Assembly (NCBI GenBank): GCA_905178155.1
Contig: CAJINV010000016.1
Location: forward strand, 248,001-312,000
Origin: Amoebophrya sp. A120
Taxonomy: Eukaryota; Protista; Dinoflagellata
Reading direction: 5' to 3'
DNA: 64,000 bases
Positions within the stretch are counted from its first letter, which is position 1; every line of letters starts with the position of its first letter. Position numbers and translations under genes: made by a program. The notes beneath the pieces were generated by a model. The model was given only the letters and a program-made list of their open reading frames with translations, was not told the DNA's origin and ran no database searches. Shown in pieces: positions 25,726 to 64,000 of the stretch.

Positions 25726-28700
25726 CTACAACGGCAGGCGCCACGGCGTTGCCCCTCGACGGCCCGCTGAAGACTTCCCGGGGGGCCCGGCTAGGCATTT
25801 CCGGGGAAAACTGCTGGGGGGCTTCGGCGAGGCCCCTTGAATGGGTTGGCGTGCTGCTACGTAGGTTGGTAATCTGCCAGAAAACCCTGCGCGAGCCCCC
25901 AGGAAGGCGCGGCGCCTAAGGCTTCCTTCCATCCCGGGCGGTGGAAGTTTGGGCGCGCGCGCGCCGCCCCTCGGGGTGACCACATAACAGAGCATGCAAA
26001 ATCCGGCGCGAGGCCGCCCTTTGTGGATTGCCTTGGCTTCGTTGCCCTTTTTGTTTCGGGGGCAGCTGAGGAGAGCTCCACGGCTAGCCTCCGCCAGACA
26101 GCAAGCCCAACCATGCGGCGGGCGTGCTTGCTCATGGCCTGTTCTGCTTCGGAAGCGTTTCCGGGGCGTCGCCTCCCATCCATAGTTGTCCAACTTCCAA
26201 CCACACAAAGCTTCCCGAGCTTGCGGCCAATGGTCCGTCGCCACGACCCCATCGGCGCAATACGCTCGGGCATACTCCAGGATCGCCTGCGCCCGCTGGG
26301 TTCCGAGCTGCCCGACAACCGAAGCGCCCCCTGCATTCTCGTCTTCCGCAACAAGTTCCAGAACCAACAGGGCCACAGCGTCCTCGAGGTTTTCAACGGG
26401 TCGCAAATGCACGCCGCCCTCGTCTTCGCTCGCCAATAGCTTGGCGGAGTCTGCCGGCCGCGCTTCTAACATGTGGGGGCCCGCCCGCTCCTTCAGCTGG
26501 TGCGCCGCGGCACTGACCTCCCAGGCGTATAGCTGGATCGCCAGAGGTATGCCGAGGGCGCGCTTGTCCGCCCGCCCAGACGCGGCAAGATCTTCAAGGT
26601 CCTCTGCCTGAGACAAAGCCTGCTGCCGCCTAGCGTCAACCCAAGCGGGTATGGTGGGGGCGAGAGGCATGTATGAGTTTTGCGATGTATTGGCGGAAAT
26701 ACATCGCAAAACTCATACATCATACATGGAAGATTTGAGGAGAGCGCGACGGTTCCCATGTACAATGTATGAGGTGCAATACATCAATGCGTCATACATT
26801 GTACATCGTACATTGTACATGGTCCAGTGTATGACGTACGATGTATGACACATTGCACATTGGTGCATTGTGCATTATGTACATTGATGTATTGGACATT
26901 GGACATTGGACATTGTACATTGTACATCGTACATTGTAGGTCGTCGAGCTGTTCGAGCAGCTCGACATCCGGGCCCATGTCGAGCCGTTGTCGAGCTGTT
27001 CCAACAGCTCGATATCCGGGTGGGTCCATGTCGAGCTGGTGGGGCAGCCGTGTCGAGCTGTTGCAACAGCTCGACATCCGGGCCTCTGCCGAGCTGTTGC
27101 CGAGCTGTTGAAACAGCTCGACATCCGGGCCCATGTTGAGCTGTTGTCGAGCTGTTCAAACAGCTCTACATCCGAGCCCGTGTCGAGCTGTTGTCGAGCT
27201 GCTCGAACAGCTCGACATCCGGGTCCATGTCGAGCTGTCGACATCCGGGTCCATCATGTCGAGCCGTTGTCGAGCTGTTCCAACAGCTCGACATCCGGGT
27301 CCATGTCGAGCTGTTGTCGAGCTGTTCAAACAGCTCGACAAGCGAGGCCATGTCAAGCTGTTGGAGCAGCCGCGTCGAGCTGTTGCAACAGCTCGACGTC
27401 CGGGCCTCTGCCGAGCTGTGGTCGATGCACGATGTACAATGTACAATGTACCAAGCAGGATGCACCATGTACAATGTATGTTGTATGATGTTCAATGTAT
27501 GAGGTACCCAGAGCGGAGAACTTGCGATGTATGATGTATGAGGTACCTACAGCGGAGAATTTGCGATGTATGATGTATGATGTATGAGGTACCTACAGCG
27601 GAGAATTTGCGATGTATGATNTGTATGATGTATGAGGTACCTACAGCGGAGAATTTGCGATGTATGATGTATGATGTATGAGGTACCTACAGCGGAGAAT
27701 TTGCGATGTATGATGTACAATGTATGATGTATAATGTACGAAAGTGAGGCCGTTCTCCTCAAATCTTCCATGTATGATGTATGAGTTTTGCGATGTATTT
27801 CCGCCAATACATCGCAAAACTCATACATGCCTCTCGACCCCACCATATTGACCCAAGCGCCAACACTGGCGAGGAAAGCCTGCAGAAAGGTTTTGGGCGC
27901 GCCGCGCATCTGCCGCAGAAGTTTTTCTTCACCGCCCTTTAGCAAAACAGGCGGCGCGTTTTTGATGGCGGAGGCGAGGCACCTCTCCAGAAGCACCGGC
28001 GCAGCCTTGTCAGGCGCGTGCTCGGGTTCTTGCCTGGCCATCGGGGCCGAGCCTGGGCTGTCTCCTGCCTCCCCCCGATCTGCATGCGGAGCCGCCTCCT
28101 GGCGCGCGGGTGCTTTTGTTTCTTTGAAGACCTCGCCAGCAGAAAAGCCGGCCGGCAGCGGCTCGCCCGGCGCCCAGAATAGCGCCGCGTAATACTGTGC
28201 GCGCAGGCCGCTCTCCGCATAAGAGAAAAGCTCACGCGCCCGGGCGAGCTCCTCGCGGCCACCGAGCACGCCGGGGGCCGCGGCGGTTATTTCTTGGTAA
28301 GCCGTGTACAGGTTCGTCTCGGCCTCGCTTTGAAATCCCGCCGCGCGCAGCGCCTGCCTTTCTGCTTCGCTTAGCAGGCTGCCATCGCCCTGCAGCGCTG
28401 GCCCCACGATTTCGATAGCGCCGCTCAACCTGCTTTCCACATTGCGAAGCGAGCACAGGAAATCTTCTTGCCACCGGGTGCCCTGCGGAGCTCCTGCGGG
28501 GCCAGGGACGGTCTCCTGCCCTGCAGACTTGCCGGGCGCCTGCGTGCCCTGGAACTGGGAAAAGCCTTCGAGCAACTCTTTGACCGTTTCGGCGGTCCGC
28601 TCTCGTGCGGCAAAAACATCCGCAGCAAGCTGCTCGCCCACAAAAAGCCCCGCAAGCTTTTGGGGCGGAGTAGGTGGCGCGAGAAATGCGCCAATGTGGA

Positions 28701-29322
28701 GCGTCCGCAGAAATGTGGCACTGCCCTCGAGTTCCTGCAAAGCTTCGACCCAGGCCTGGCCATCGCCACCAGAGTGGCGCGCGCCACTGACGACCCGCGA
28801 ATAAACGGAGTCGCCGGCCTCTTCAAATTTTTCCAAAGCGGCTAAAAGCTGCGCGGCGCGCTGTCCCTCTGCGTCTGGACGTAGCCCAGGAGGCACATAC
28901 CCCGGCATCTTTCTCAGAGTCTCCGCCAGGGGGGCGGGCCGTGGGGCAGACGCTTTTGTGAGAAATTTGAGAAAATGCGCCGCGTCGACCAGCACTTTAC
29001 GAAGCAACGTCGTTCGCTCTTGTCCGGCAGTGCGAGAGGCCGCGAAATCACGCCGGGCCTGCGCGACGAAATCAAGGCGGCGCCTCCGCCCATTCGCCGG
29101 AGTAATCCGGTCCAGGTAGTCCTCGGGGACCTTTTCGGCGTACTCTATTAGGTGGAGGGCCATGCCGCGCAACGTGTTCCGGCGAATGGTGGCGAAAGGG
29201 CTCCCCCCGGCTTGTGCGTTGCCTCTCGGGCTCGAAGGCAATGCAGCTGCAGGCCTGTCGAAATGTTTGGCGCAATGCAATCGGGAGCGCGGGGCGCGAT
29301 GCCGCCGGGCCAGCGAAGCCAT
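25726..29322 (-). CDS. Hypothetical helical multi-domain protein (~790 aa) interrupted by a 1.2-kb foldback element
   Basis: ORFs on both sides of the element share a duplicated AWV (..ASVGAWV|DARRQQ..). N-terminal domain shared with 24148, C-terminal domain shared with 33445, 34067 and 37098. Termini uncertain. Confidence 0.65.
26650..27847. mobile_element. 1.2-kb foldback-type element with 97-bp TIRs (TAT...ATA), probably an intron
   Basis: TIRs at 26650-26746 and 27751-27847, each containing a perfect 23-bp hairpin. Internal cattgta/tacaatg arrays are inverted; palindromic gtcgagctg..cagctcgac units; tandem units of ~40-55 nt. 9-nt DR acccaagcg at 26639-26647 and 27851-27859. One N at 27621. 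Confidence 0.85.
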
Positions 29323-31068
29323 ATAAATACTGACAAGCAAAATCCCAAAGAAAGGGGGGCCTGAACAAAAGCACAGAAACGGAGCAGGCTGAACAATAAC
29401 TCTAGAGCGCCCCACAGAAAAGCCATATACTAAATCACTAACTGGAAGCCAAAAGAAGGCGGCAAGCCGGACCGCACGAAGACAACACCGGGCGAGGGGC
29501 GGGCGGGTGAATACATGGAGGCCGAATACGAGGCGAAAAACCCCAACGGGCCGAGCCAAAATAGAAGCAGGCGCGGCGCCTCCGGTGGCCGCCCAATCAA
29601 CGAACCAAAGTAAGAACAGGCATCGCCCGCCGGCCCCCCATACCTGTCTAGGATGCCTGCCTGGCCAGGCTGGCAGGCGCCAAGGCGCCCGGCCCCCTTT
29701 TCTACCTTTGGCCCCTTTCGGCTTTCCCGAGGGACCGGGCCACACAAAGCCGCCGCCCCACGAGAAGGGCTGGGCGCCCGGGGGTCCGGAGCAATATGGG
29801 GGGGCCCTGCCTTAGCAACCGAGAGCAGAGAAGAGGCCCCCACCCGAGCACGGCGAACGCCCATCGCACGCTCCCTGTCTCTCTGGCCCTGCGTGTCTGA
29901 GGGCCGGGGGGCGGCGCGCGCGAGGGGGTGCTCGACGGCCCGCGGGGCCGTCAAGCCCCGCGGGCCGTCAACTCGCTGCGCGCAATGCATGCCCTTGAGC
30001 CCAACGCCATGCATCCATCCCGACTGGAGTCGGCCTGAAGCACTCACGCGCCACGCTAAGGCAACATTCAAAAGCCGCGGCCAAAACACCACGGCCCCGC
30101 CCCCCCCGGACCTCGCAGAGGCTTTCCGGGTTTCTTGCGCTGGAATGGCGGGCCAACTAGTTTCTGGCCCTCAAAACCACGCGCGCCGGATAAAAGCAGG
30201 CGGCCCACCGACTTTGGTTGGCGGCCTCTTTTGGGGCCTCCGAAGGTTTGGGGGGGCGCGGGCCGATGTGGCGCTCACGCCCTTCCTGCATAGATACCAT
30301 GCGGCGCCCTTTGCCCTTCGGCTAGCCGCCTCTTTGGTGGCCCGCTCCTTTCGGGCACCCAAGGCCGCCAAGTAATAGCCAAAGCGGCTGGCGAGCGCCT
30401 CAGAAGGTCGGCCGCCATACCGGCTTCGCTGCGCTGGCCGATTCATCAGGGAGGCGGCAGGCGGCACAAGCCAGTCGGATTGCGTCCGTGCTTGGAAACG
30501 AAGCCCCGGCCGCCTGGGGGGCGCGCGCCTTTTTTTATCTTTCTGCCAAAACCCTGCTGGCCGCCTGAGGCCTTTCCATAATATTGCGCGGGGGGCAGCG
30601 CGCGCCTTGCCTTGCTGCAGCGCTCGCCACCTCGCGGCAAGCCAATTCCCTGCCTAAGGAGCTGCGCTGGCCTAACTGAATTCCGCCCCGCGGCGGCGCC
30701 CGAGGTGTAGGCGCCGAGGACAATCAACGCGGCGCAAGTTAGTTGACGCCCTGGCCGTCGGGCCCCGCAATCAAAAGTGGTGGCCTGCGGTCATGTTGCA
30801 GGCCTGCGATAATAGCCCCCGCGCGGGTGCTTTTGCAAAACACGCTGCGCCCTCTCAACGCCTTGCAACCGGACGACAGGCCCGCGCGCGGCTGCGTGCC
30901 TGCCCTCCCCTGGTTTGGCATTAAGGCGGAAAACACAGCCCCCCCTTCTCTGGCCCCCTTCTCCGAACAAGACGGGCCCCCAATGCCAGGCCCCAAGCAA
31001 TCTATCTCGCCGCGGCCATTTTCTTAATTCTCGAACGCATCATGACAAGGCAACAAACGAGCACTATC

Positions 31069-31785
31069 TTACCCAGCTCCCAGGCCGCCGCGCCACCACC
31101 AAAGAGAGGGATGGCCCACCTCCGCGTCTTTCCATTCGCTGCCGCCTTCCGTTTGCTGCAAAGTGACAACCCCGAGACACTCGACCTCCGCCTCTGTACG
31201 CTCCTTGCCCACGGCCAGCGAGGTGAGCGCGGCAAGACGCGAGCCCCCCGAAGGCTTTGGCCCTCCTGGTCGGCGACGTACGCGGGCCGTTATTTCCAAA
31301 TCCCTTGGAACGCCAACCCAACGAGCCGCCTTGCCGCTGCTTTTGTCCAACTTCTGGACGGCGTCGATTGCGTAATAGAAGGCGCCCTTTTTGTATCCAC
31401 CTTTTCGGCGCGCCGTTCTGAAAATGACAGGGGCGCGGCCGTTCTGGCTTTCCAACTCCCAGTCTTGCGTGCCCTCTGGCTCGCCGCCTGCCTTTTCTCT
31501 TTTTTTCCAGATGGCGCGCGCGTTCGATATTCGCCGAATGGAGGGCCTGAGCCACTCAAGCTTCGCCGCCTCCTGCAGTTTTGTATGCCCAGAAAAACCC
31601 CGGGGGGATTTCACTGTTGGGGCCCGGCAACACGAGCGGCCGCGCGTGATGGTGGGCAACCTGGGCGAGTGCGGTGGCAACTGGCTCCCGCCCCAACATA
31701 TCACCGGCGCACCGCAGCCAGGGTGTTTAGCGACGAGAGGCGGCTTGCTTGGTTTGGGCCGGCCTCTAAACAAAGCTGGCCCCAC
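31069..31785 (-). CDS. Possible hypothetical protein or decayed ORF in the GC-rich island
   Basis: 238-aa ORF on the gene-bearing strand with non-repetitive composition; no recognisable motif. Confidence 0.25.
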   Translation of the reverse strand: MGPALFRGRPKPSKPPLVAKHPGCGAPVICWGGSQLPPHSPRLPTITRGRSCCRAPTVKSPRGFSGHTKLQEAAKLEWLRPSIRRISNARAIWKKREKAGGEPEGTQDWELESQNGRAPVIFRTARRKGGYKKGAFYYAIDAVQKLDKSSGKAARWVGVPRDLEITARVRRRPGGPKPSGGSRLAALTSLAVGKERTEAEVECLGVVTLQQTEGGSEWKDAEVGHPSLWWWRGGLGAG

Positions 31786-33444
31786 CCCCTGCTTGCTGCC
31801 TCTCTACTTCCACCACCTAGGTAGTCTCTATCGCCTCGCGCGCGGCAAACATCCTCTGGCCCGCCCTCTGGTCTTACCGGTAGCGCCCGCCTCTGCGTGC
31901 TTTGTCTTACTTATGAAGGCCCTACGCCGGTACCTTTTGCGCGCGCGGCAATTTGAAAACACTTTCTGGGGCCTTTTACAGTTGCCACCGAGCGCGCTGG
32001 CAAAGAAAACCACGCCACCCTGGCAACGTTAACTAGAACAAGAAACGAGCCCGGAGGGCCGAGAGCGAAAGTGGGGGCGGACGCTTTCGGGCCCCGCCGC
32101 CTTGACAAATCGCGCCCCAGGGCCCCAGCTACCATCTCGGTGCCATCGGGCAGGAGCGCAGACGCCATCCCGCGCACAAATGTGCAAAATCACCGGGCGC
32201 CGTATCTCGCTCAATTACACGCAGGCGTCCTCGCTTTTGTTCGCTGGCTGGCTGGGGCGCGAAGGCGCGGCGCACCGCCCCGCGGTCGCGTCTACTGCGT
32301 TTTTAATTTTATAAGACAGGCAGCGCCGCACCGTACCGGCCGGGCGGTTCGGCTTCTGCCCCGGGCGGCCAACAACAAAACGGCACACCCCGCCCGTCCG
32401 CTTCCGCGAATAAAACGGCCTGGGCCAATTGGTAGGCTACCGCAAGAAAAGGCCCCGGGCTTTTAAATTTTCAAACGGGCCCAAAGAACATCCCGAGGCG
32501 GAGCAAGAAAGACAAAAAAAAACAAAAGAAGGGCTGCGGCCAATACACAAAAAAAACGGCGGGGGGAGGGGCGCCGGGGCCCCGGCGCCGTGTCCATCCC
32601 GTTTCCCGCCAAACGTTCCGGGGGCGGGTACTGCGTTGCGTGCTGCATGCTGCCCGAGAAAAATAAAATCGCCGCGGGGCGACGGCCTCGGCGCCCGGGG
32701 TTTTGCAAGTCCCCGACGGGTTCGCCAGATTTTAGAAAAACAGCCCGCCCAAGGTTCGTCCGCCTGAACCAATCAGCCTCCGCGGGGCGGCAACCTCGCC
32801 GCGCTGTTTCCCGCCCGGCGCGCGTACGCCGGCCCGCGCTGCTTCGCTCGCATCCTCGGAAAAGAAGAAAGAGGGGCGGGGCCACCCAGCAGAGGCCACA
32901 AGACCAATCAAATTGCCGCCGCCCGGTCGCCCACAAGAGAGGGCAGGCCCTGGCTGCGCCTGTTCTGTTGGCGCCGCCTTCCTACCCCACAAGCCGGCCG
33001 GGCCCTATCTGCTGGCCTGCTTGCAAAATCCAAACCTGGCTGGGCCCTGGACGAAGGGCGCCGCACTGACTAAAGTGCCCGGCCAAGCGCGGACAAACCG
33101 AGGGCGGGCGCCAGCTCAGGCTCGGCGAACACGCTGCCACCCACCCTTGCGAGGGCCCCCCAGAGCCGAACGGGGCCCGCCTCCGGGCTTTACGAAAATG
33201 CGATCCGGTGCGCGTGCGCCTGCCTTGTTCTTAAATACACAACCGACGCCGCTTCAGGCGCGTCCGACAGATCTTGCTGCGCGCGAGAAATTAGGAAAAC
33301 AACGCCGGCCGCGCCATAACAACGTCAGGGCGGCACACCCGCCCAACCTGCCTGCTTATTTGAATGCATGGACGAACACGGGCGGCCGCGTCGGTTACTA
33401 AAGGTTCTGCGAGTGGGCCCCCCAAAGACTTTCGCTTTCCGCCC

Positions 33445-33888
33445 CTACTTTTCTTGTTTTGCTTTTGTCTTCTCCCACTCCCTGCTCGGCTCCTTCAGTG
33501 GGTTGCGGCGCTTCTCCACCTTGTCGACGTACGCCGTGGCATACTCCGCGAGCGTTTGCACGGCCTCAGAGCCGAGGCGCCCAATGGCCAATCCGTCGAG
33601 AACTTTCTCACCTTCAGAAACAAACGCCAGAGCCAATCGGGCCGCAGCGTCTTCGAGAGTCCTGACGGCGCCAAGAGACATACCACCCTCCTCGTCCGCC
33701 TCCTTATCCAGCTGGGCTTCGGCGGCAGTAACCCTGTCCCAGAGGTCATGCACATCCGGGCCCTCCTCGTCGCTCGCCCAGCCAGCTTCATCGTTGGCCA
33801 ACTTTTCTAGACCCTTTGCCTGGGCCACAACCTTCTCCAACCTACGAGCAAACACAACATCAAGAGGCGCTATCGAGTGCTGACCCAT
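33445..33888 (-). CDS. Hypothetical helical protein with the LExxxARLxxxFV..LG..QTLxEY domain
   Basis: LEDAAARLALAFVSEGEKVLDGLAIGRLGSEAVQTLAEYATAY; probable ATG at 33888 within ORF 33445-34299. Confidence 0.6.
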   Translation of the reverse strand: MGQHSIAPLDVVFARRLEKVVAQAKGLEKLANDEAGWASDEEGPDVHDLWDRVTAAEAQLDKEADEEGGMSLGAVRTLEDAAARLALAFVSEGEKVLDGLAIGRLGSEAVQTLAEYATAYVDKVEKRRNPLKEPSREWEKTKAKQEK

Positions 33889-34066
33889 CTCCCCATGCCT
33901 CGCTTTCCCGCTTCGGGGCAGTGGCTTCTCACTCGAGTGACGGCGAAAGGCAAAAGCCGGGCGCCCGTTCCCCGGCCCGAAGGCGCCGTCTGTGGGCGCA
34001 CGCGCGCACCCTTCCAACTTTTCGCGCCAGGCGCGCCAGTAGCAATACATAAACGGGGCACAAAAT

Positions 34067-35143
34067 TCAAGCGCGCCACATTGTGGCGGGGCGGGTGCTC
34101 GCAATGGGGCGCCGGGTATGCAACAGGGCGGCCGGGGGGACCCGGCTAGCCAGGGCGGGGGGGGGCTGCAGCAGTAGGCGAGGAAGCAAACGGGGGGCGG
34201 CGCCCGGGGCGCGGTGCAGAGGGAGCAGGGGTGGCAAGGCGCAAGCCAGCCCCCGAGGGCAAAAAACCAGCGCGGCTGGGGAGGCGGCGCGGGGGGCACT
34301 CAGCCAGCTGACAATGCCGAAACAGGCGCCCCGCCGCCGGTTCCATGCCCCCAGCCGCTGCGGCCGTGCCGAGGCAGTCGGCGCCGGGAGGCTACAAAAC
34401 AAATGGCGCCGCGGGCTAGCGGTGCCTGCAAAGCGGGGCCGCGTGGAGATGGGGAAAGGATTCAGCCTCCTACCATCAAGCTTCGTGCACTTTCCTGCAA
34501 GCGACCTCAAGATGTTCGGCGTGATCGCGTCTTCTAAGTCGCGCCGCACGCTATCGAGGGCCCCCTGTGCGATACTTCCGGGAGGCACATGCCGTACGGC
34601 GGTGCCTCTTCTGACCAAGCTCTCGGCATGCGCTGCGACGTACTCCATAAGCGTTTGCACCTTTTGGTGGCCGAGCTTGCTGATCGCCCAAAGGGCGCCA
34701 TCGTTGTAATCGTGAAAGCCAACAAACAACATAGTCAGCCGGGCAACATGGTGCTCAAGGTCTTGCGCTTCGGCAGCATTTGTATAAGAGGGGGCCCTGA
34801 CACGCTCAGGCCTAACTAAACTCCCGAAACAAGGAGGTGCGTGGGCTCCAATAGTAATACTTCTTGATCGCGGGGAATGGGGATAGGAAAAAAAGGCACG
34901 CGCCGGCGCGTCCAGAACACCAACTAACACGCTTGCTGCTGGCCAGGCGAACCGCCTCCCCGGGTGGGCTTCGCCCCGCGGAAGATTCCGTGTTCCCGGA
35001 GAATCGGGGCCCCCTGCTACCTGGGGGTCCCTGCAAGGCCCCGCCTTTCCCAATGTCTCCTCGGGGCTCTTCGGCCTCCCGGGCGGCCTCCGTGACTCTT
35101 CTCGCGCCCCCGGTGTGGCTTTCTGCGGTCGGGGACGTGCCAC
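34067..35143 (-). CDS. Hypothetical protein or fragment with the same domain (credible part ~34450-34830)
   Basis: LEHHVARLTMLFVGFHDYNDGALWAISKLGHQKVQTLMEYVAAH. Confidence 0.45.
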   Translation of the reverse strand: MARPRPQKATPGAREESRRPPGRPKSPEETLGKAGPCRDPQVAGGPDSPGTRNLPRGEAHPGRRFAWPAASVLVGVLDAPARAFFSYPHSPRSRSITIGAHAPPCFGSLVRPERVRAPSYTNAAEAQDLEHHVARLTMLFVGFHDYNDGALWAISKLGHQKVQTLMEYVAAHAESLVRRGTAVRHVPPGSIAQGALDSVRRDLEDAITPNILRSLAGKCTKLDGRRLNPFPISTRPRFAGTASPRRHLFCSLPAPTASARPQRLGAWNRRRGACFGIVSWLSAPRAASPAALVFCPRGLACALPPLLPLHRAPGAAPRLLPRLLLQPPPALASRVPPAALLHTRRPIASTRPATMWRA

Positions 35144-35722
35144 CGGGCGCCCATCTAGAAAATGAAATCCTCCGCGGCGCCTTTGCCCCCCCTAGTCGGG
35201 CCGCCCCGGCCGCCAGCCTGCCATCCAAGCAAACGCGGCCGGCGCTCGTCAGTTGGAAACCCCGGGGCGGTGGCGGCCGCTAATTTCCAGCTAATTTTTG
35301 CGGGATTTTTTCAAACCCCGACAATCGGGATAATAGTTGAAGGCCCAAACCCGAAAAAGCGACAACCCAAGTTGCCGCGCGCGAGGTCCCAAAACAATCA
35401 CGAGAGGGGCTTCAGGACAAGAAAAAGAAAACAACGAGAAGCAGGCCGCCTCCTACACATGGAGCATGGCAACGCCGGCAATCTCACACAGGATGAATTC
35501 CCGCAAAACAAAACCCCAAATCCCAAAACCGCCCGAGAAGCAAAAGCACCCATCGAACACCCCACCCAGTTACACCCATACGAAACACCCCCCGCGGGCG
35601 GCTATTTTCGCTGCTAATTCTGCGGCTAATTTTGTTTCTATTTTTGGGCTCTATTTTCGTTTCTAATTTTGCTTCTATTTTCGTATTCTAAATCATGTTC
35701 TATTTTCGTATTCTAAATCATG

Positions 35723-36000
35723 TTCTATTTTTGGGTTCTAAATCGTATTCTATTTTGGCTTCTAAATCGTGCTACTATTTTGCTTTCTATTTTTTGCGGG
35801 ATTCGCATGTTCGAGCGGCTGCTTTTCAACTTCTAAATTCGCGCTTTGGAGGATTTCCTTTGGAAATCTCCAGTGTCGCGAAAAATAGAAGTTGAGAAGA
35901 CAGCTGCCGAACACGCGAATCCCGCAGAAAAATAGAAAGCAAAACAGCGAGCACGTTTAGAAGTCCAAAATAGAATACGACTCAGAGCCCAAAAATCGAA
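35723..36000. repeat. ~280-nt imperfect palindrome (long hairpin) preceded by AT-rich short tandem repeats
   Basis: Arms such as tcgtattctattttgg/ccaaaatagaatacga, tgctttctatttt/aaaatagaaagca, gcgggattcgc/gcgaatcccgc and tcaacttcta/tagaagttga pair in nested order around the apex gatttcc-ttt-ggaaatc. Confidence 0.85.
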
Positions 36001-37097
36001 AGCTTTCGAAAAAGCCAGCGACAATGGCTTTGCGAAAGAACGAAACAGGGATAGGGTGCAGGGATTTCAACATTGCCCACACGGCCCAGGTCTTCACAAC
36101 CCAAGCCGAAAACCCGAGGGCCCCCATGAAAACCAGACCACAAGCGCTGCCCTCCACCTTCGGGGCCACCCGGGTACGAAAATACCAAAGAAGCCCCCAG
36201 GGCGTTCGAAATTCCGAATCCCCTGCAAACGGCCGTAATTTTTAAATTTTAATTCCCGTCGTGGCTTTTCATGGAAAAACACACGCGGGACCAGCGGGGG
36301 GATTTGACAAAAACCCGGCCCCCCGGGCGCGGTGGAAAAGGGCGGAACCCTGCGGGCCCGGGAAACTTCAACGCCCGGGGATGAAAACCGCCGCCCACCC
36401 TAAGGGCTTTGGGGAAATCCCGCAAAAATTAGCTGGGGTTTAGTGCCTCCCGCGGCCCGCGGGCTCTCTGACTGACGCTCGTAAGCCAAGCAGGCGGCCT
36501 AATGTGGCGCAGAGGGTCGGTTCCGCCTAGTCTTTGGGACCTCCGGCAGGAGGGCTTGCCGCGCAAACTAGCCTGGGGCACTCACGCCTGGGCCCGCCGG
36601 TATTGGGGGAATCCCGAAAAATTTAGCCATTTTTTTTGTCAGCCGCGGACCGGGGCCTGCTGGTGGAGTGCGGCACCCCATCGGGGCAGCCGCCCGCCCC
36701 CCCGGGGCCCGGCTTCGGCGCGGCCGAGTTTCGGGGGCGGAAGCCTCCGCGCCTGGGGCCCTTTCCAAAACCACCAGGCCCGCCACACATCTGTGCCGGC
36801 CTGTCGGTAACTGAGCACTTATTAACGCAAGGAAGCCGGGCGGGCGCGCTGGCGACGCTTTATTGTGCCGGCAAGTCTACCCTGATTTCCCCGTCATTCA
36901 ATATTTGATGGCAGCTGGGAGCACGAAACCAATGCCCGCAGGCAATGCGGTGTCCCGGCTGTTTGTGATGCGCCATGGCACCACCACGGCGCCCACGAAA
37001 TCAATGGCAGCCTTTGCGCCGATTCAGCGGAAAACCATTTTGGGCCATGCCTGTTATTTTCAGGAGCGCAGCCACGCAATTTCTAGGCCTGACAGCG

Positions 37098-49000: not shown

Positions 49001-52000
49001 AAGTTCAGATTTGAAGATAACGCCGAGGAGGTGTTAGATCGTGCTCTAGTCGTGCCCCTACTTCGAGAGGGAGATAAAGACAACAAACTGGTACTAGACC
49101 GGGAGAGAAGACTGTTGGACTGCGCCAAAAGGTCATCTTCTTCTCCATCGGAGATGTGAGCATCGTTCTGACCGGCGCTTACTATTTCGTCCAGTCCAGT
49201 ACGATCATCTTCCATCTCCGCAACGTCTGACGAATCCTGCTGATCCGCTTCGCTCGCTGAATTCATCTCATCAGAGGGCGATGTAAGAATGTGCGTATCC
49301 AGCACCGCACCACGGTCTTCTGGTCTTTCAGACGGTGGAGTGAAGGAAGGCAGGCGGTGTAGCACTGCGTCATTGTCGTGTAGTAGTTCCATATTAGCAA
49401 GAGCTTCGTGCTCATCGTCGCCTAGAAGTGCGATTTCTTCAAACCCGGTCGCATCATCAGCTCCTGATGTCCGCAGAACATAATCGTACTCGTGGTCTCC
49501 GTCTCGCTGTGCTCGACGTGCATCGTTATAGTTCATCCGGACACCAGCGCCAACGTCTCCCATTTCCACGTCGCCCTCCTCCTGTTCCCCGACAGGCGAC
49601 GCTGACGGTGTTTCCCCGATTTCCGTTGTGCCCCTGCTCTCGGAGGTCGTCGCGGCAGGAGTCGTGGGCTTCGCGATCCTTGGCAGTAGTTGACCTTCAT
49701 CTTGCAGTAACTGTTCACTTTCTCCTTCTTGTTCCTCCTGCAGATCGTGCAGACGCGGTTGCTGGACTTCTACGTTGGAAAAATCAGCTGGTGAACAACT
49801 TCGGTGGTCCAGGTGGTCACAGTTTTCTCGCACAAGCACACTCTCTGTAGGAGGACCGAGCCGACCTGTGCTTGACGCGGCACCGCCGATAGAACGACCG
49901 GCAGCCATCTCCACATCGCCTGCTAGTTCAACTCGACGCGTACTATCTGGATAATTCTGCTCCTCGCCGTGTGGTTGTACTATGCTCCGTGGAACGTCAG
50001 TAGTCCAAAACCGCATTTCTTGCATCGCCGGAGCCGCACCTGCACTTACAGACGGAAGGGAGGAACCACCTGCCCCGGCAGCACCTGAACTAGTTCTGCC
50101 TGAGCCCCGACTTGATGTTCTGCCACTTGTCGCGCTGCAATCGTGCAGCCGCAAGTCCCCGCTGTTTTTCACCAAGAGGTAGAACAGCAGCGCAGCCGTC
50201 TCCTATGCAAAAACGTCCCCGTAATGCAAATCTGCATGCCGAAGATATCTCTCATGCGGAGCCCCATGGGAAGCATATCCATTTTCTAGCTGTGACGTTT
50301 CGAAATTTGTGATGCCCCAATCAGCGCGATGCGCTACGTCTGTGATGCTACTGCACTAGCTGAAGAGGATTACACTACGAGGCCAAGCTTGTCATGCGTA
50401 ATAGCCAAAGCGTGTTGATTTGTCTTGCAGATTTCCCAACTTGACGATGGGGTGGGGACGTTTTTACATATGATAAACCGCCGCCTCCTCCCCGATCGTG
50501 GAGACCAGGTCCATAATCGCCCGGTGCTGCACAAACGCCGCCACTGTCGACGTCGAGGGTTGCTTCGTAGTGCTTACAGTAGAAGTTCCACCAGCATTCA
50601 TTGTCATTGTGTTCGGAGCATTAGAAACGTTATTTGTCGTCGTGCTCGACGCGCTAGCTCCATTCCCGGCACTGTTCGGCGAAGCAGAACTACTTGCTGA
50701 CGCGTCTGTCGTTCTCCTTCCACGCCACGATTGCCTCCTCCTCCCAGGACCAGCAGCAGCAGCCCCAGCACTACCTCTGTTGTTCGCAGCCCTGTTTACA
50801 CCCCCACGAAGAAACCTCGGGACGACGGAAGGCGGAACCTCCATCCCATCGGCGTTCGCGAGTGTTCGCAGGTAGTCCAGCGTTATTCGATCATGGTCGG
50901 GGTCGAACCCGACGTACCGTTCTGCTTCGTGGTTTCGGCGGCGCAGACGCTGAATCCGGTTGCTCAGACGAGAAATCCGGGCACGCGGGGCACTGGTCGG
51001 TATCGGTTGCTGTGTAGATGAGGGGGTGTTGATCGGTTCTTCTACTTCATCTGTGGCTGTCGTACTAGGAAATAATGGTGGTGCAGCGTTTGGAGCACCT
51101 CCAGTGGGAGAAGCTGCAAGTGGTACTGCTTCGGATGCTGTCATTTCTTCGTCAACGAGCGGGAACAAAACAGCAGCGCGGTCTTGCAATTCGTGTGCGG
51201 TAGAAAAATCATGGTTGATTTCATCATGTTCGAGAGCTGCTGCTGCTCCAGAAGGAGCTGCCAGCAGCGTCTCGCTTTCAGCATCTGCCACGTCGAGAGT
51301 TTGAGTTGATCTGCTTGACGCGGCTTGTCCTTGTTCCGCAGCAGTTCGTAAAAATTCCTGCGGTACTAGGCCTATCCCAAACGGGGCTTCTGATTCTGTG
51401 GCGGGTGGCAGCACGTCGTGGTCATGTGAAGCAGCAACACCTGCTGCAACTCCAGCTACTCCACCACGACCCGGGCTCTGGTCCAGCGAAAGCCCCCGCA
51501 AGGCTGCGGCGGCAGACATGGGGGAGCAGGTGCTGTTTTCATCCAGAGCAAACAGAGACGACGTGGAAGACTTGTTACAGCGTATGCATTGCACAAGTAT
51601 CGTACTCGCACGAATGACAATCATGCATGACAAATTCCATTCCGAAAGAAAAATCAGCATGGCAGACTCCATTTTCGTTCTTGAAAAAATTTGCAATGCC
51701 ATTCATACTAGAACTAGTACGATACTTTTGCAATGCATACAGCGCAAGGTCGAGCAACTGCTCCCCGGTGTAGCTGTGCTGGCGCTGTCCGATACGGGGC
51801 TGGCAGCTGCAAAATCGTGATTTATGATGGAACTGGAGCTGCTACCACTAGAAGTCATTATCTTAGCTCCTGTGGTCCCATCTTCGCCAACAAGGTCGTC
51901 GTTTGAAATCTTCGAGTCGCTTTCTGTCTTCGCAGCACCTACAGCAGAAACATCCTCCAAACAACTGCCGGCCACTGTGCTGTTTTCATCGCGAGGTGCC

Positions 52001-55786: not shown

Positions 55787-58700
55787 TCACATACTGACCA
55801 ACCCCGGTCCCCGCATTCGCTTCTCCTCCTCTTCCTCAAACACAACTTTACAATCGCCAAACTTGCGTCGCAAATTTGCTACCCGTAGCATAGAATCTCC
55901 GCACAGACGTCGTGATTCTTGCAAGTGCAATGAGAGAAGTGAACCGTCAGAATAGCCAGTTGCACCATCATCTTGCGGTTCTCCACTCTGCGAGGCAGGG
56001 TTTGGACGACCACCAGGAACAGCACCTCGTTTTGTATCCGGCAGTAGCACGACCTCCGTTCCATCGAAATCCCGGCAATACCGCAACTGTTCCTCTTCCG
56101 GAATGATGATCACGTGTTCAGGCACAGAGGGTGCAACTACAGATGCAGTGCCTGCTCTACTTGGTGACCACACGGCATCCTCTTCCGCTCCTCGCCCCAC
56201 AGGTCTCGTCTCATTCACAGGCCTGCCGTCGCTGGCGCTTGCTGCAATTTGTTTGTTCTTCCCAGACGACCTGGTCACCCGATCAGAAACTACATCAGCG
56301 CCGCCCAACATTCCCAATTTCTTATACCGCTGCTCTGCTTTTTTCTTCGAGCAGAATCTTATTCCGCTCCTGTTCATCTGTGTTCTTGATGAAGATGACT
56401 TATGTCCCCAATAATTTGGTGCAACTGCCCCGTCTTTGTGCTTCTCACTATCAATGCCACCCTCAGTGGCATCTGCTGGAGTAAAGTTATGTTGTCGAAG
56501 ATGCGCAGGAGCACTAGTACCCGTTGCGGTGTTGAATGAGCACTTAGCAACAATGCCGCTTGTTCTATGCATCCGGGCAAAGTTCCCAACTCCGCCATAC
56601 CGCTCGACTATCCTCCGTATTCGCGCCCGAACCAAATGCCTAATTGTGGTTGCTACCGGATCTGTGTTGCCATGAAGATCCTGCGAAGATGCGTTAGAAG
56701 TTCTCGCACTTAGCACCCTCCCGCTCACCGGATCTGCGAAAACCTCCCTCGACAAAAAGGACCCCTGACTCAGCAACGCGTGCCTGCGAGTCCGCAGCAT
56801 GCGTGCTTTCGCGGCAGCAGATGGGCCGGTGGAAAAAACCGCTTCCACGTCTTCCGCAGAGGCGATGACAGGGGCGGATTGGAGACTACTTGTCGTCAAG
56901 TTTGCAGTTGATTTACTGCCTGTGCCTGCTGTAGTTCCTGTTGCTGACATTAATACCCCTGCGCCGTTGGTCGTGGTCGTGTTCAGCCGCGCTTCCAACT
57001 TCTTGGCTTGGATTTCTCGGTCGGACTTCGCCTGTCTCCTCTATCCAAGAAAAAAACAAAAAGTGTGTACGTGTAACGGTATAGGAAAGGCAGCATCACA
57101 AATAATTCGCTTTGCATTTTTTACAGAAAAAAGCTGTCATGCATAGCTACGCGCATGAAAACACGTATGAAACGTGGCTATGACGCACTTCACGCATGAC
57201 AGGCGTAAAAACGGTATTTTTGCATTTTTTGCATCACAAACTTCCAATTTACACAGTTCTTTTGTCTTGGATATCTTCAGCTGTTCGATCAACGCTTTTC
57301 GGGATTGTACCATGTACTGGGAATTGTTTAATGGATTAGGATATCAAATGTAAAAATGTCTGGGTCTGGAAGAATTCATGTTTGTCATGCTTGTCCGGCA
57401 TGACTGTTAAATCTGTCATGCACGTTACCCAAGAGCTCCGCTTTTCTGTGATGCAGTAGTAGTAGTGACCATTTGACTCCTGGCGGGTTGGCGTTAGAAC
57501 AGATCTAGCCTCTGCCAATACCTGGGCGTTAGAACAGATGTAGCCTCTGCCAATACCCCTAGGTGGATACCCGATCCACTTCCTAACTGCAGAAGCGCAG
57601 TTTGTCATGCAGAATAGGCAACACCTAGGAGCTCAGAAACTTGTCATGCTGAGCCAGCATTTGTAGCCTCATCATGAGACGCCACCCAGCATCACAGGCT
57701 TCCAGACCCAGACATATTTGCATTTGATATAGGATTTGAAGATGAACTACCACTGTTAAAATCCGCACCAGATGAAGCAGCAAGACCTGCTCCTGTCGTC
57801 CCTTGTTCAACAGAAGATCCATCGTGAGATATTGTGAGGAAAAATCCCTCCTCCCCACATTGAAAACGCATCCGTCTGAAAATCTGTGATGCGGATTTGT
57901 GCCCACAAATCCTGTCTGTCTTGCACGCAGGCAAATCCAGAGGATCCGCCGCACTATGCAGGCGGTTTGTGATGCTGTTGGGCCTACACTATCGACGTTT
58001 TTCACGCTAGGAGCCTACGCCAAAACATCGCGGCTCAAGCTTGGCATATACCTGCAGTTTCCTCTACTGCAAGACAAATGTGATTTGTGTACTGAAATCC
58101 AGCATCAGAAACTTCTTTTTGATATGGGGTGGGGAGATTTTTCCTTTTGATATGAGAAAGCTCCCCCTCGTCCCCATCAAATTCCTTCCCCGAGAACGGG
58201 TTCGGGGAATCGCAATCGTGCGTCAGAAACGCCTCCAGTTTCTTCCCCAATAAGTCTTTCGTCTCTCGCCATTTCTCGATGCCAAAATGCGTCCGCAAGC
58301 AGCTCTGGATGTGGTTCTCTCGGAAGGGCGTGCCGGCTTCGTACTTGGTTGCCGCGAGAAATTTCACGTACTTCTTCACTTGGTTCTCCCGCTTCTCCTA
58401 TCAACTGTAAAAATGTCTGGGTCTGGAAGATTGCCGGGTTTGTCATGCACATTTTGCATGACTCCTCAAGTCTGTGATGCATGCCCTAGCATCACAGATT
58501 TTTAGAGGGCTTCCTGATGCCTATTCCGCATGACAAATGCTCTTTCCGTGTTGCAAAATTTGGACTCTCTGTGCTGCTCATGCAATACAGATTTTTTTAG
58601 AATCCAAAATCAGCATGACAAGTTGGATTCTTCCAGACCCAGACATTTTTACATTTGATATCTCCCGGTCCGAAGGGGTCAGGTCGGCGAGCTTTTGTTT

Positions 58701-61700
58701 CATGGAGACATTTATCCTGTGCAAAAGTATCGTACTCGTATAAATGCTGGTCTTGCATTACAAATTTCATTGTCAAGGCAAATCAGCATTACAAATTTTA
58801 TTTCTCATGCTGAGAAAATAATTTGTAATGCATTTATACGAGTACGATACTTTTGCAGTTCATAACATTGCTCGTCGGTGTACTACTAGGACCGTTGTCT
58901 TTGTCTCGCAGCTGCTGGTCCTTTCGCGCACCTCCACGACGTGTCTGGCGGTGGTTTTTCGCCGTTCTTGGCGATGGTACGTTACTGAAGATATCTTCAT
59001 TCTCGTGCTCTTCGCTGCTTTCACAATTTTCGGCAGAAATCGAAGGTTTTTCTGTGCCCGTTGCTGTCATCATCATCTGCTCGGTCGAATCATAATCCTT
59101 CGTCTCCGCCCGGGCGGCCAGAGACACGGCAGACAATTCCTCTGCCGCAGTTAATTTTTCAGTTTTTGCAGATCCACCTCCTCCGCTCATCAACAACTTC
59201 CTCGTCACATCCCCGCTCAAACTCGCGACCTTGACTTTCCTATGAAAGCCTCAGAATGGAAATCCTCAAAGTGGAAAAGGAAATAATTTGTGATGCATGA
59301 AATGCAAGGCAAAAAAGACTGTATTGCAAAGGACACATCAATGGAGGCCGACTATTGTCCTGCTAGGGGTGAAGAATTGGGCTGCTAATTAGCACGACAG
59401 AAGGGCACCCCTTTGCCTAACTAGCATAACAGACACGTTTTGAGTGCCCGGGAAATTTGTCATGCGCCGACTACAAATGACGCTTCAACTGGAGTCGTTT
59501 TTTTGCATTACAAATTACCAGCCATGCTCCGGCTACCGCCGGAGCGCAAGGCTGTTGGGCCGGGGCAAGACCGTGCGCCGATTGGACCACAACACCACGG
59601 GCCTGCGGACAACGCAACATGTTGGAGTCCTGCCGCCTGTTTGCGCCGCGCCAACCCGCAGGACCACTTGCGCGCCTCCCGCGCCTTTGGGCGCTCTGCG
59701 CAGGGAGCAGCTGCAAAGAACACCGTGGGCGAACAGAAGCCGCCCGGCGCGAGAGGGTAGCGCGAGAGGGTGGCGCGAGAGGGTGGCGCGAGGGGGTGCG
59801 CGAGAGGGTGGCACGGAAAGACGCCGAACAAAACAAGTCCGTAAGGGCCTGCAGTGCGAGATATGTGTAGCGTCATGCGGATGCGCGCCTATTTCTTTCT
59901 GTTTTTACCTCCTCGCAGACCTCTCGCAGACCCTCCTTTTGACCTCTTTTGGGGGTCCCTGCTAATAGTCCGGCTATACTCGCGGGTAGAGGTCGACCGA
60001 GGTGGCCGAGAGGTGGCCAAGAGGGTCCGCGGGAGGTCGCCCCTTATTCGCGCAACCTCTCGGCACCTCTGTCCACCTCTCGCCTGCCCTCTTTTCTACC
60101 TCTCGGCACCCTCCGAGGCGCTTAGCGGCCCTAAAGGGCGAGCGGTTCGGCGGGCTATACTCGCGCCACCTCTCGCGCACCCTCTCGAACTGCCTCCCGC
60201 GCCACCTCTCCACCTCTGTCGACCTCTTTTTGACCTCTTTTGACCTCTTTTTTACCTCCCGGCCACCTCTCGTCTACCCTCTCTAGACCAATATTTTCGC
60301 ATGAATATAATTTAGACCGGAAAAACGGCCGGAGTACATGTTTTGTCGCGCTTCGCCACTGTCTGGCATTGCTTTTGTTTCGCTTTGGGGGCTGCCCGGG
60401 GCCCGACTAAGATGCCCGGCCCAGGGACCGCGCCGCGCCAGGCGCCGGGCTGCGCGTTCTTTGTTGCCAAGGGTCCGGGATAGATTTCCCGGCCCGGATG
60501 TCGCCCACGGGGGGAAGGCAACGATAGTCCGCGGGGTCTTCCCTTTCCGGCTGCTATCGGCGCGGGGCCCCGCGACGGCATGGGGTGCGGCAGCCGCGCA
60601 TGCATTTGCGCGCCCCTGCGCCGAATATGGTCGCGGGGGCGCAGAAAAAGGAGCGCCCGGCTTCGGCACTTTCGGGGGCGAGGGCCCTCCCCCCGCGAGA
60701 GGGGGCCAAAATGGGGGCCCGAAGTTGGCCCAATTCGGGCCACTTCTTGGGGAGGGGGTAAAATGGGCTCAATCTGGGCCATTTTGCCCCCCCCCTGTAG
60801 CATCGGGGGAAGGCCATTTTTTGCCCCCCCCTAAAAAAGAGGCCGAATTGGCCCAACTTTTGCCTTCTTTTTACCCCCCCCCGGAGGGGGGGTGGTAGGT
60901 TGCCCCCAAGAGGGATTCTTCACGGCCCCTGCCTCAATCCCCCTGAAGAGGCCAGGCCCCCCAGGAAATCTCGCGGCCGGGCTGCTGGTTGCAGTTGTGC
61001 GGGCTCCGAGGTTGGCGCTCCACCACCATGCCGTGCCTGCCGCACGCCCCCGGTGCGAACCATGGCCGGGGGGGCCCAGCGAGGCGCGACCGCCTTGCCG
61101 CCCCTTCCCTCTTCCGGGCGGGCGCCGCCCGCCTGCGGTCATTGAAGCACATAGCAGCAGGCGGCTACCCGCCGGATGACTTGCCCCATCGCCCGGCCGC
61201 ACCATCGCGCCCCCCCTAGTCGCTATGCCCGCGACCCGCGTGCCAACTGGTTGCACGAAAAAACATGTACTTCGGCCGTTTTTCTGGTCTAAATAATAGA
61301 TAGTAATTTCCACTTTGAGGATTTCCAACCTGAGGCTTTCATATTTCCCCGGCCGGGTTTTCAGCGCTTTCTCGGCCACCCACCGGTTGTACCCGTTTCT
61401 TTCCAAGTACACTGCGAGGTCGGCGTTTTTGAAAAGGTTCAAAAAATCAGTACTGTCTATGTCGATATGAACCGCAGATCTCCCGTGTTTGTTCTGCTCC
61501 TCACAGTGTTTCGAAAACTGCTCTACCAGGGAGGCAACCTTCTCCCGATCTTCTTCCGTCACCGGTTGTTCTTCGAAGTCGTAGCGGATAAACGCTTGCA
61601 ACCGCTTCCCCAGAATCTGTTTGATTTCCGTGTGCTTGTGCAGTTTAAACTTTTTCCCCAGCTGCTGCTCGACCTCTCGGACGGTGGCGCGGGACCCGCC

Positions 61701-64000
61701 AAGCTGTTCAATCACCTTGCGAATCATGTCTTTCCGAGTGTCGTTTTTCAAGGTTGGTCTGGGTTCGTCTCGAGGTCGTGCGGTTGTGGCTTTTAACATC
61801 GCGAAATTGTGAGTGTTGTTGCTGCTGCCGTTCTGGTCTTCTTCCGGATCTTCATCTCCTTCTGGAGTTTTTGGTGTACCTGGGCTGCTCGTCGTTGAAG
61901 AGAACATGCGGGCCTGTTGAGACAATCCGGTGCCTGCTGGCGATGTCGCGGCCATGGCTCTAGTACCCGAGTTCGTTCTTGCGGCGCGGCTGCTGTTCCT
62001 ATTCGTTTCAATTTCATCCCGTACAAAGAGCCTCCGTTCTGCGGCTGAAGTAGATGCACCGTCACTCACTTCTGCATCTTCATCCTCCAGGGCAGGTTTT
62101 GTTCCACCACTATTCCGCAGGAGAAGTCTCGACTTGCTCTTCAATTCCGATGAAATGCTGGGTGTAGCGGCCAACATGTGGAGTTCGTTGTGATTATCAG
62201 CTTGTCCCACCTCCTGAATATGATCAATATTCGCAACTTCTTCTGCAGCTGCTGTTTTCTCCTGGTTCTCGTGCCCGGATAGGAACAAGGTGCGCGTGCT
62301 GCTTGACGCGGTTCTTGCAGTGTCAGGCCCGAAAACAAGCAGTCGCTGTTTGGCACGAGAAGTTGTTTCCGCTGCGTTGCGATCAATTTCATCCTCCTCG
62401 TAATTCTCGTGCGGGAAAGCTTCATCGTGTCCCAAAGGTGTTCGTAGTTGCTCTGAAGTAGCCGCGTAATTTTCCAAATTTTCCTTGCTCGTCACCCGTA
62501 GCAGTCGCTTATTGAACTCTTCTTCCTTCAATTCTTCTGCCAGTAGCACCTTGTACCAATTCTGACACAAATAAGGACTCCCTTGCCGGTCCAGCTGTTC
62601 CGCGATCTTTTCTAAGCTCGTCGGTCTTCTTGATGGTTGTACAGAAGAAAGAGCGACGACGCGCTCCTGTACCTTCCCATGCAACGACCCAGCACCACCA
62701 CCGGAGCCCCAATTCAAAAAAACACTTTCCCGCAGCTTTTCATCCCGATTTCTCTCGTGTTCCAGCCAGGCTGGTAGAAAACAGTCGTGTAAACAACTCG
62801 TGAGGTGTGACGTTCCAGCAGCCCCACTGTGCGGCTGTAGTGGGTCCTGCGTTAGCCATTCCGCAAGCCAGTGCGGAGCTGCAGAAGTAGACCACGATTG
62901 ATGTTGTGTCGAATTCGAACCATTGCTCGAACAAGCACTTATGCTTTGGTAGTACAGTTCCACTACCTTCCGCTTTTGCGAATTCGTGAAATCAAACAAA
63001 TTCCTCGCTTCTTTCTGCCTGAGGAGCTGTACACCTGCTGTCGTGGTACTAGTCTTAGCGTTGGCCCCACCAACGCCGCTGCCCGAGATAGAAGTCCTCG
63101 TTCCTGCCAAAATCTGCCACTTCCGGTATATCAGCTGTAGCTTCGCCCACACGAGCTTCGTCGCAGTCACAGGGTACTGGTTCAGGGTAGTTGACAAGTA
63201 GTGCAGAATCTCTAACTGTTCGCAGAGTTTCAGAGTTTGAAACAACGACCTGAAAGTTGTAGACCTCGTGGCAGTTTTGTCAGCGGTGGTTTGACTAGAA
63301 GATGTTGGTCGGCGGTGTAGTTGTTCCACAGAAACGAAGAAATTCGCTATTTGCTCCGCTTCCTCATTCGCTTTCGCCCGGTAACCCAGTGTAAACAAGT
63401 CCCGGGCCAGCTGGGCGAGGGGGAAGTAAGTGTGAGGGTCAGGGTGGACTGGCTCCACGTTATTCTTCCGGCCACTGCTGTTTCCAGTCTGCGACTCAAA
63501 AGTTTGGTTTGTTCCAACATACAATTCTTGCTGGTGCTGTTTTTGCATCCTCGCCTTGGCTCGCCTCCTCGACGAACAGTGTGGTCGGTTGGCTTTTGTA
63601 ACTACGGCACAACCTGTTTTTGCAAGTCGAAGTCCTTCGTCTTGCTCGCGTTTGTTCTGCACAGGCTGACCACCCTGCTGCTGGGTGGTCGTCCTCTCGT
63701 TTATTGCACAACTAGTACTGCTCTGCGTTGAAGCAAAAATTTTTAGCAACATTCCCTCCAGCAGCTTGCTGTCGCAAACCCGGAGCCTTGCCATATGGTG
63801 AATAATATCACACATCTGCCTTCTCGCAAGAACATGATGCTTGTAGTCGTGTTCCTGATTCCTGTGGTCTGTTCCTGCAAACCGGTCCTCCTCGTCTCGC
63901 TGCTTCACATCCTGACCCGAAGAAAACACGAGTTTTCCCGTCCCGTCGAGTAACGCCTGCAACAAAAACCGCTTGTGCCAGTCCAAGCTCGCCGCAACTT
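55787..64000 (-). CDS. >1,570-aa protein (5' end outside the window), putative RAP/FASTK-like RNA-binding protein with two LOTUS-like repeats; 6 introners
   Basis: Removing 2108, 157, 267, 328, 393 and 237 nt joins all exons in frame (RPGK|VKVA, SNV|SMKQ, DRE|KREN, ELSH|DGSS, SNP|NPLN, QLK|RQAK). C-terminal LCGDSMLRVANLRRKFGDCKVV resembles the RAP pattern LxGxxxLKxRxLxxxGxxVV. The gene structure is firm; the domain calls are by eye. Confidence 0.75.
57042..57273. mobile_element. Introner family H
   Basis: tatccaagaaaaaaacaaaaagtgtgta ... tacacagttcttttgtcttggata; DR tcctc/tcttc; 237 nt, in frame. Confidence 0.88.
57342..57729. mobile_element. Introner family B-like with an internal 35-nt tandem duplication (57490-57557)
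   Basis: TIR tatcaaatgyaaa.atgtctgggtctggaag; DR tagga/tagga; 393 nt, in frame. Confidence 0.92.
57830..58152. mobile_element. Introner, family C-related TIR
   Basis: tattgtgaggaaaaatccctcctcccca ... tggggtggggagatttttccttttgata; DR tgaga/tgaga; 328 nt, restores frame. Confidence 0.9.
58399..58660. mobile_element. Introner family B (close relative of 14256)
   Basis: TIR tatcaa.tgtaaaaatgtctgggtctggaaga; DR tctcc/tctcc; 267 nt, in frame. Confidence 0.92.
58713..58864. mobile_element. Introner family A
   Basis: TIR tat....tgcaaaagtatcgtactcgtataaatgc; DR acatt/acatt; 157 nt, restores frame. Confidence 0.92.
59241..61343. mobile_element. Introner family D expanded to 2.1 kb by nested GC-rich insertions
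   Basis: TIR tatgaaagcctcag..tggaaatcctcaaagtggaaa; DR tttcc/tttcc; 2108 nt restores frame; D-type interior runs to ~59517. Confidence 0.88.
60306..61298. mobile_element. Nested 993-bp GC-rich TIR element (TAT...ATA)
   Basis: ~46-bp TIR tat(a/t)atttagacc(g/a)gaaaaacggccg(g/a)agtacatgtttt; no clear 5-nt DR. Confidence 0.8.

Follow-up and report, generated by a model that had tools for sequence, protein, structure and literature searches.

Two mobile elements nested inside a 2103-bp introner of Amoebophrya sp. A120

The locus and its three layers

The window, by which we mean the whole 64,000-nt stretch of DNA that was analysed, is eukaryotic in style, with long minus-strand open reading frames split by about two dozen TAT...ATA elements with a 5-bp direct repeat. 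The 22 introners catalogued in it measure 109–388 bp (median 262), save for a block of 2103 bp at 59241-61343, which lies between two exons of a minus-strand host gene. This block is made of three nested layers (314 + 803 + 981 + 5 + 5 = 2108): an introner of family D (layer 1), a GC-rich Helitron-like element within it (layer 2), and a TTA...TAA element within the latter (layer 3). Their parts, in the order of the forward strand, are as follows.

58865-59235, minus strand: downstream exon of the host gene, 371 nt, then further introner-split exons; matched by X3 record 2 with no other letters
59236-59240, no strand: outer target-site duplication TTTCC, left copy
59241-59517, no strand: layer 1 body (left arm, interior, and inner ~20 nt of the right arm), from alignment to relatives in the window
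59518-60311, minus strand: layer 2 body, GC-rich, with direct and inverted internal arrays; 803 bp including 61298-61306
59518-59521, minus strand: 3′ CTGG of layer 2 (fits CTRR), then T; identical in 4/4 copies
59526-59545, minus strand: perfect 8-bp hairpin with a 4-nt loop, ending 8 nt before the layer 2 3′ end
60307-60311, no strand: inner target-site duplication ATAAT, left copy, part of layer 2
60312-61292, no strand: layer 3, 981 bp, 66% GC, TTA...TAA, with ~40-bp inverted repeats at 60312-60351 and 61253-61292
61293-61297, no strand: inner target-site duplication ATAAT, right copy
61298-61306, minus strand: first 9 nt of layer 2, its minus-strand 5′ end, beginning TT and severed by layer 3
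61307-61343, no strand: layer 1 right end, the terminal 37 nt of the right arm of family D; intron 5′ end on the coding strand
61344-61348, no strand: outer target-site duplication TTTCC, right copy
61344-64000, minus strand: upstream exon of the host gene, at least 885 codons, open at the window end and including the TTTCC of 61344-61348; where X3 contigs match it, they show no other letters

The three-layer nest is real. Without its inserts, layer 1 is a 314-bp TAT...ATA element with a 5-bp duplication, TTTCC. Its outer inverted repeat (59241-59277 and 61307-61343) begins with TAT and is complementary at 35 of 37 positions, with TTTCC on both flanks, in agreement with the original prediction that the outer repeats and their duplication are intact. 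When layer 1 is set against its three relatives in the window (at 16430, 46185 and 54447; about 67%), the alignment ends at 59517 and restarts at 61306. Uninterrupted members of the family, in which 59516 is joined to 61306 and 1789 nt are skipped, occur in X1 (6 contigs), X3 and X4; moreover, in 67 X1 contigs the match ends at 61343 and the flanks beyond are unrelated (agreement 0.38). Both positions that had been predicted for the break in family D, about 59517 and about 61306, thus hold, although the break lies in the right arm and not in the interior: family-D arms are ~60 nt long, and 37 nt of the right one remain at the terminus, with ~20 nt stranded at 59498-59517. Analogously, the expected stretching of a ~310-bp family-D element to 2.1 kb is borne out in its sizes (314 bp and 2103 bp), and its cause proves to be three nested layers rather than two inserts side by side. 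The left arm of the 59241 copy also has six additional bases (59278-59283), missing in the three other window copies, which look like an imperfect local duplication.

The limits of layer 2 are defined by its other copies. An exact 28-nt scan of metagenome contigs, which covers exact matches in a small sample, found three loci with layer 2 (L001, L002 and L003); in addition, contigs of X1, X5 and X7 (one sample, behaving as DNA) and of X4 were aligned to 59440-61420. In 4/4 of these runs, other copies pass from 60311 directly into the letters of 61298-61306 and then into other flanks, and the same end is found in L001 and L003 with one letter differing. At all three sites with both ends (the window, L001 and L003), layer 2 is flanked by A and T and there is no target-site duplication; in L002 the left neighbour is likewise an A. 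All three copies that retain the 5′ end begin with TT rather than TC. The hairpin is the only stem of at least 8 bp in the element; among 2000 shuffles, such a stem arose anywhere in 179 and that near the end in 6, and the fold z-scores of three copies range from -3.6 to -4.7. Self-comparison of layer 2 gave no end-to-end inverted repeat. The repeat arrays noted in the original prediction are present (59746-59812 and 60160-60258), within an element that begins at 59518 rather than at 59745, where the GC-rich segment (59745-60285) had been thought to start. Full copies are 83–90% identical to each other. Depth in X1 reaches thousands over most layer 2 bins, compared with 25–28 on unique sequence, a ratio that does not measure copy number; it is far lower in three bins (9, 516 and 623), and there is no X1 cover near 59594-59622.

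The marks of Helitron1 are a 5′ TC, a 3′ CTRR, a hairpin 10–12 nt from the end and an A|T target, as given in the accessible parts of PMC11417382 and PMC5148889. Layer 2 resembles non-autonomous Helitron1 (HLE1) in its A|T target, the lack of a duplication, the 3′ CTRR, a GC-rich hairpin near the 3′ end and the lack of terminal inverted repeats. It differs in its 5′ TT, in a hairpin 8 nt from the end, and in that every copy with visible context lies in introners. Judged by these sequence marks, layer 2 is Helitron-like and is not assigned as a Helitron member; because its 5′ end is TT instead of TC, it is not filed as Helitron1. Other classes fit less well: Helitron2 (Helentron), as layer 2 has no short terminal inverted repeats and a T|T target does not fit the window site; a SINE, which is a weak candidate with no RNA-gene head, no simple tail and no duplication; and a tyrosine-recombinase element, there being no terminal direct repeat beyond one A. 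A variant placing a 5′ TC of layer 2 at 61300, with a TA duplication for the inner element, was refuted by the contig alignments.

Layer 3 sits inside layer 2, 9 nt from its end. The original prediction had drawn here a separate 993-bp TAT...ATA element (60306-61298), which has no flanking direct repeat (1/5 match); the actual unit is 60312-61292, inside the GC-rich element, and the ends had been misdrawn by 6 bp on each side because the AT-rich duplication supplied those letters. Copies elsewhere, to which the original prediction had looked for insert ends and duplications, set in the contig sets the ends of layers 2 and 3 and the ATAAT duplication; layer 2 itself has none. Layer 3 is low in copy number, with X1 depth of 25–53 in most bins, i.e., about the single-copy level; a second, diverged copy is present in record 7, and two X4 contigs exit at 61292, the layer 3 edge. 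No other TTA...TAA element in the window has a duplication. Pfam gave no family for the one layer 3 ORF tested, Rfam gave eight weak matches, all far under gathering scores and none at gathering score for layer 3, and the layer 3 end motif is absent from the viral contigs searched. At 61258-61292, X4 contigs join the layer 3 end repeat to unrelated interiors, and TTA-type ends therefore mark a wider family.

Probable removal of the block from the host transcript

The block is very probably spliced as a single intron. A contig of X3, a run guessed to be RNA, joins 59235 to 61344 with exactly 2108 nt skipped. This contig (record 2, 601 nt, depth 5) comprises four exon pieces that span three introners, and the shorter side of the 2108 joint has 38 nt. 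Its pieces 58249-58393 and 58865-59235 contain no other letters, and a length that fits a 47-nt middle exon plus 38 nt beyond 61344 leads us to take it for a single contig with three joints. It should be noted that the evidence for the 2108-nt splice is this one contig, of depth 5, in one run of guessed RNA nature. Among the 12 X3 joints listed, five remove introners exactly (393, 328, 267, 157 and 2108 nt). X3 depth is zero over 60539-61072, where X1 has single-copy depth. The raw RNA runs X9, X10 and X11 gave 186, 3 and 0 aligned reads, all on repeats only, and X4 has no depth on the exon piece examined.

The reading frame tells a similar story. As originally predicted, removal of 2108 nt leaves an open minus-strand frame with the junction RPGK|VKVA, and the claim that the block is a frame-restoring unit gains from the X3 contig, which skips exactly that length, and from a joined frame that is open for 1573 codons once six introners are removed. 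The frame stops at codon 1055 when unspliced, at codon 909 with layer 3 alone taken out, and at codon 912 with a bare layer 1 left in. None of the 20 window ORFs or exon pieces tried matched Pfam, so no transposase was found. Protein searches with the host exon gave no match, itself weak evidence; hence there is no outside proof that the two exons belong to one protein, which counts against the splice.

The most likely reading, which we hold with moderate confidence, is that all 2108 nt would be removed in one step, guided by the predicted 37-bp outer stem. The introner inserted in a coding gene with a 5-bp duplication; a Helitron-like element next entered the right arm of the introner at an A|T target and left no duplication; and a terminal-inverted-repeat element then inserted 9 nt from the layer 2 end, with a 5-bp duplication. 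Empty sites and duplications reveal this order. In the pre-mRNA, the outer 37 nt of both arms would pair and the two TTTCC copies would thereby come to lie side by side, the non-canonical splicing of the organism would unite the exons with one TTTCC copy left, and the cargo would fold by itself without interference. Insertions that spare the outer stem and the duplication could then be removed free, and introners would therefore shelter elements that are not themselves spliceable from exons.

An equilibrium prediction for the 2.2-kb pre-mRNA is consistent with such pairing: the mean pair probability is 0.96 over the 37 pairs of the outer stem and 0.92 for the inner one, with both present together, and the predicted duplexes have -60 and -57 kcal/mol within pairs, compared with -8 to -12 across pairs. 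The inner repeat pair, presented in the original prediction as a competitor of the outer, is predicted not to act as one, the across-pair duplexes being weak and both stems being predicted jointly; in the absence of competition, no order of removal would be needed. That end pairing works over 2 kb is still something we infer, and as likely only, because the 2108 joint can also be read GA-AG and thus needs no pairing itself.

This ambiguity gives rise to the strongest alternative, in which the duplication, together with the A that ends the repeat, supplies a GA donor and an AG acceptor at which the spliceosome cuts; the stem would be incidental, and long introners would persist mainly near such sites. 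According to the accessible parts of PMC7789003, most spliceosome parts are present and 2.95% of A120 introns are GC/GA-AG. GA-AG is one of six possible registers at the 2108 joint. Against this alternative, only 3 of the 22 catalogued introners offer a GT/GC/GA-AG register and 13 lack an AG register, and three of the five exact introner joints in X3, at neighbouring introners, skip elements with no register ending AG at all. The composites of layer 2 with other introners divide on this point. When the 1045-bp composite of L001 and two neighbouring introners are removed exactly, 467 codons without a stop result, in silico only, and this composite has no AG register. In the calpain gene of L003 (best named match a dinoflagellate protein, 54%), exact removal of the 1095-nt composite at 1469-2563 breaks the frame, which survives if the cut is extended by 1 nt, giving GT-AG, or shortened by 2 nt; this result counts against a pure end-pairing rule. 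On balance, we regard spliceosomal cutting at GA-AG with an incidental stem as rather unlikely.

Stepwise removal, suggested in the original prediction, would take layer 3 out first through its own repeats and duplication, in the manner of a twintron, and the rest afterwards. Layer 3 does have the build of an introner: it carries inverted repeats and a 5-bp duplication, it opens with TTA and two purines in the manner of A25-type motifs, and the predicted fold gives its stem a mean pair probability of 0.92. We nevertheless consider this course very unlikely. The inner-only joint (60311 to 61298) is absent among the 12 X3 joints listed, in depth-5 contigs that a short-lived intermediate might escape; layer 2 has neither inverted repeats nor a duplication, so that at least 1122 nt would still leave in one step; and in the fold the outer stem forms with no need to remove layer 3. 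Finally, it is highly improbable that the joint is no splice at all, with X3 being DNA that comes from an allele or strain free of the insertions, or with a misassembly of the window at this point: the nature of X3 is a guess, and no DNA contig among those listed bridges the internal junctions of the block, yet the five introners that X3 skips exactly belong to several families, and its exon pieces, over more than 2.7 kb, are free of other letters, so that a strain lacking all five is unlikely, and both nested junctions equal the empty sites of other copies base for base, which would hardly be expected of a chimeric assembly.

Recurrence of layer 2 in introners

In 3/3 of the metagenome loci, layer 2 starts at the identical base, 32 nt inside an introner of a different, ~155-bp family. 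L001 and L003 have full-length layer 2, no layer 3 and intact host duplications (2/2 of the loci with both ends); L002 ends at the contig edge and also holds one more family-D copy. The notion of the original prediction that introners serve as safe havens for other elements gains support from these further copies, all of which lie inside introners, and introners therefore likely shelter other transposons.

How layer 2 came to recur there may be explained in two ways. The first, to which we give an even chance, is that one old insertion was copied together with its ~155-bp host and that loss from exons and a preference for A|T in AT-rich DNA did the rest, with no active targeting. The common base and common family of the three other copies fit this explanation, as do the introners tested, which have 32–48% GC compared with 52% in exons, and two right flanks (in X1 and X4) in which no introner sequence was recognised by eye. 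Against it, the L001 and L003 hosts are identical at 116/150 positions, a level that they also reach with empty copies (109–124 of 149–151), with inserts identical at 741/826; a tree of the hosts groups L003 with empty copies (bootstrap 80); the window copy of layer 2 lies in another family at another site; and one X7 flank has the same target letters at the end, followed by a motif of other introner families. A Fisher test of host against insert identity, based on the two full composites, gives p 5e-6, but we do not rely on it because insert identity between L001 and L003 is a mosaic (67/93 in the first block and 99/100 near the other end); homogenisation of this kind could mask a shared origin.

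The second explanation, possible and offered tentatively, is that layer 2 is a rolling-circle hyperparasite of introners, which would insert at chosen sites and be spliced free as the removal route reads only the ~37-bp terminal stem and the 5-bp duplication; TTA-type elements, regarded as specific to another strain, would also be mobile in this TAT-type genome. If layer 2 does target introners, it would be a transposon in transposon-made introns, which would explain how repeats spread in a gene-dense genome.

Comparison with known systems and other elements of the window

Introners of this kind are already known; a 2103-bp introner with two nested elements is a new variation. Layer 1 resembles the A120-type introner described, with the A25 type, in the accessible parts of Farhat et al. 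(2021; PMC7789003), in its TAT start, terminal inverted repeats, 5-bp direct repeats and membership of a repeated family. The window introners share with that type their non-canonical joints, and their median of 262 bp may be set beside a mean of 240 nt given there for non-canonical A120 introns. In contrast, the block differs from the A120 type in its 2103 bp and its two nested elements, and family D departs from the A120 motif (TAT, seven variable bases, at least three A) in a longer repeat with TCA at positions 11–13; several other window introner families do carry the A-run of this motif. Layer 3 is like an A25-type introner in having an inverted repeat that starts with TTA and two purines, and a 5-bp direct repeat, and unlike it in being 981 bp long, GC-rich, low in copy and located in a TAT-type genome; its own splicing is putative. 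The accessible parts of PMC7789003 call introner families strain-specific, analyse introns of 40–1000 bp with a support bar of 3 reads, list A120 introns of up to 35 kb in a table, and use neither "nested" nor "helitron" in text or supplement. Diverse introners in A120, both terminal-inverted-repeat and retro-derived, are reported by Gozashti et al. (2025; PMC12130899), the accessible text of which does not use "nested", although its datasets may list these families. Titles and the starts of abstracts in the literature searched yielded nothing on nested Amoebophrya introners or on Helitrons in the genus.

Looser parallels exist outside the genus. Nonconventional introns of euglenids, up to several thousand nucleotides long, resemble the block in that their ends are joined by terminal repeats and that duplication-like repeats occur at the joint; they differ in lineage and end motifs, and nested mobile elements are unmentioned in the accessible part of the source (PMC11282704). 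As far as the available descriptions go, stwintrons and twintrons share with the block an intron-like unit within an intron, but in them the inner intron leaves first, obligatorily, a step neither seen here (depth 5) nor needed (fold). Some transposons insert in other repeats, as Tx1L does in Tx1D. Layer 2 is like Tx1L in Tx1D and like Dada in recurring at one position of another repeat, with the difference that these are a LINE and a DDE transposon, respectively, for which the available accounts give demonstrated specificity, whereas targeting by layer 2 is only putative and its host is an intron-forming element.

That transposons nest in introns is well known. What distinguishes this locus is, in our opinion, that it constitutes a natural experiment, in which the right arm was cut to 37 nt, 1.8 kb of GC-rich cargo was added, and removal is apparently still exact. 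A broken arm combined with exact removal leaves three candidates for the splice signal, namely the duplication, the GA/AG letters and the outer stem, and thereby bears on how the non-canonical introns of Amoebophrya are spliced. Introners longer than 1 kb, which fall outside the range of the founding study, can be sorted genome-wide by near-canonical sites, and this makes the splicing question computationally testable. The broken arm as a test of splicing signals and the recurrence of a Helitron-like element in introners are the chief leads from this work.

The window contains further elements of several kinds. At 26647-27850 there is a 1204-bp element that has inverted repeats of ~97 bp, tandem arrays in its interior and a target duplication of 8 bp (ACCCAAGC). 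It is of a class distinct from the 5-bp TAT introners and contains the sole N of the window, at 27621. It lies in a 13-kb block (24500-37500), mostly of 58–70% GC, with many ORFs and more inverted-repeat structures (35260-36463); none of the six ORFs tested in this block matches Pfam, and the block is possibly a pile of mobile elements. Another GC-rich stretch, at 1450-2100, has short tandem arrays that are inverted at its two ends, with no clear duplication. Very long minus-strand exons are found at 8372-14257 and 47368-50202 (1961 and 944 codons, no Pfam family). The elements at 50204-50475 and 38781-39132 have introner-type ends with no matching 5-bp duplication at the TAT/ATA edge, and may differ in their splice rule. 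Two near-identical 235-bp introners, at 39618-39852 and 40485-40719, stand 867 bp apart with duplications GTGGC and GTGGC/GTGAC, and this pair probably arose by tandem duplication of an exon together with its intron.
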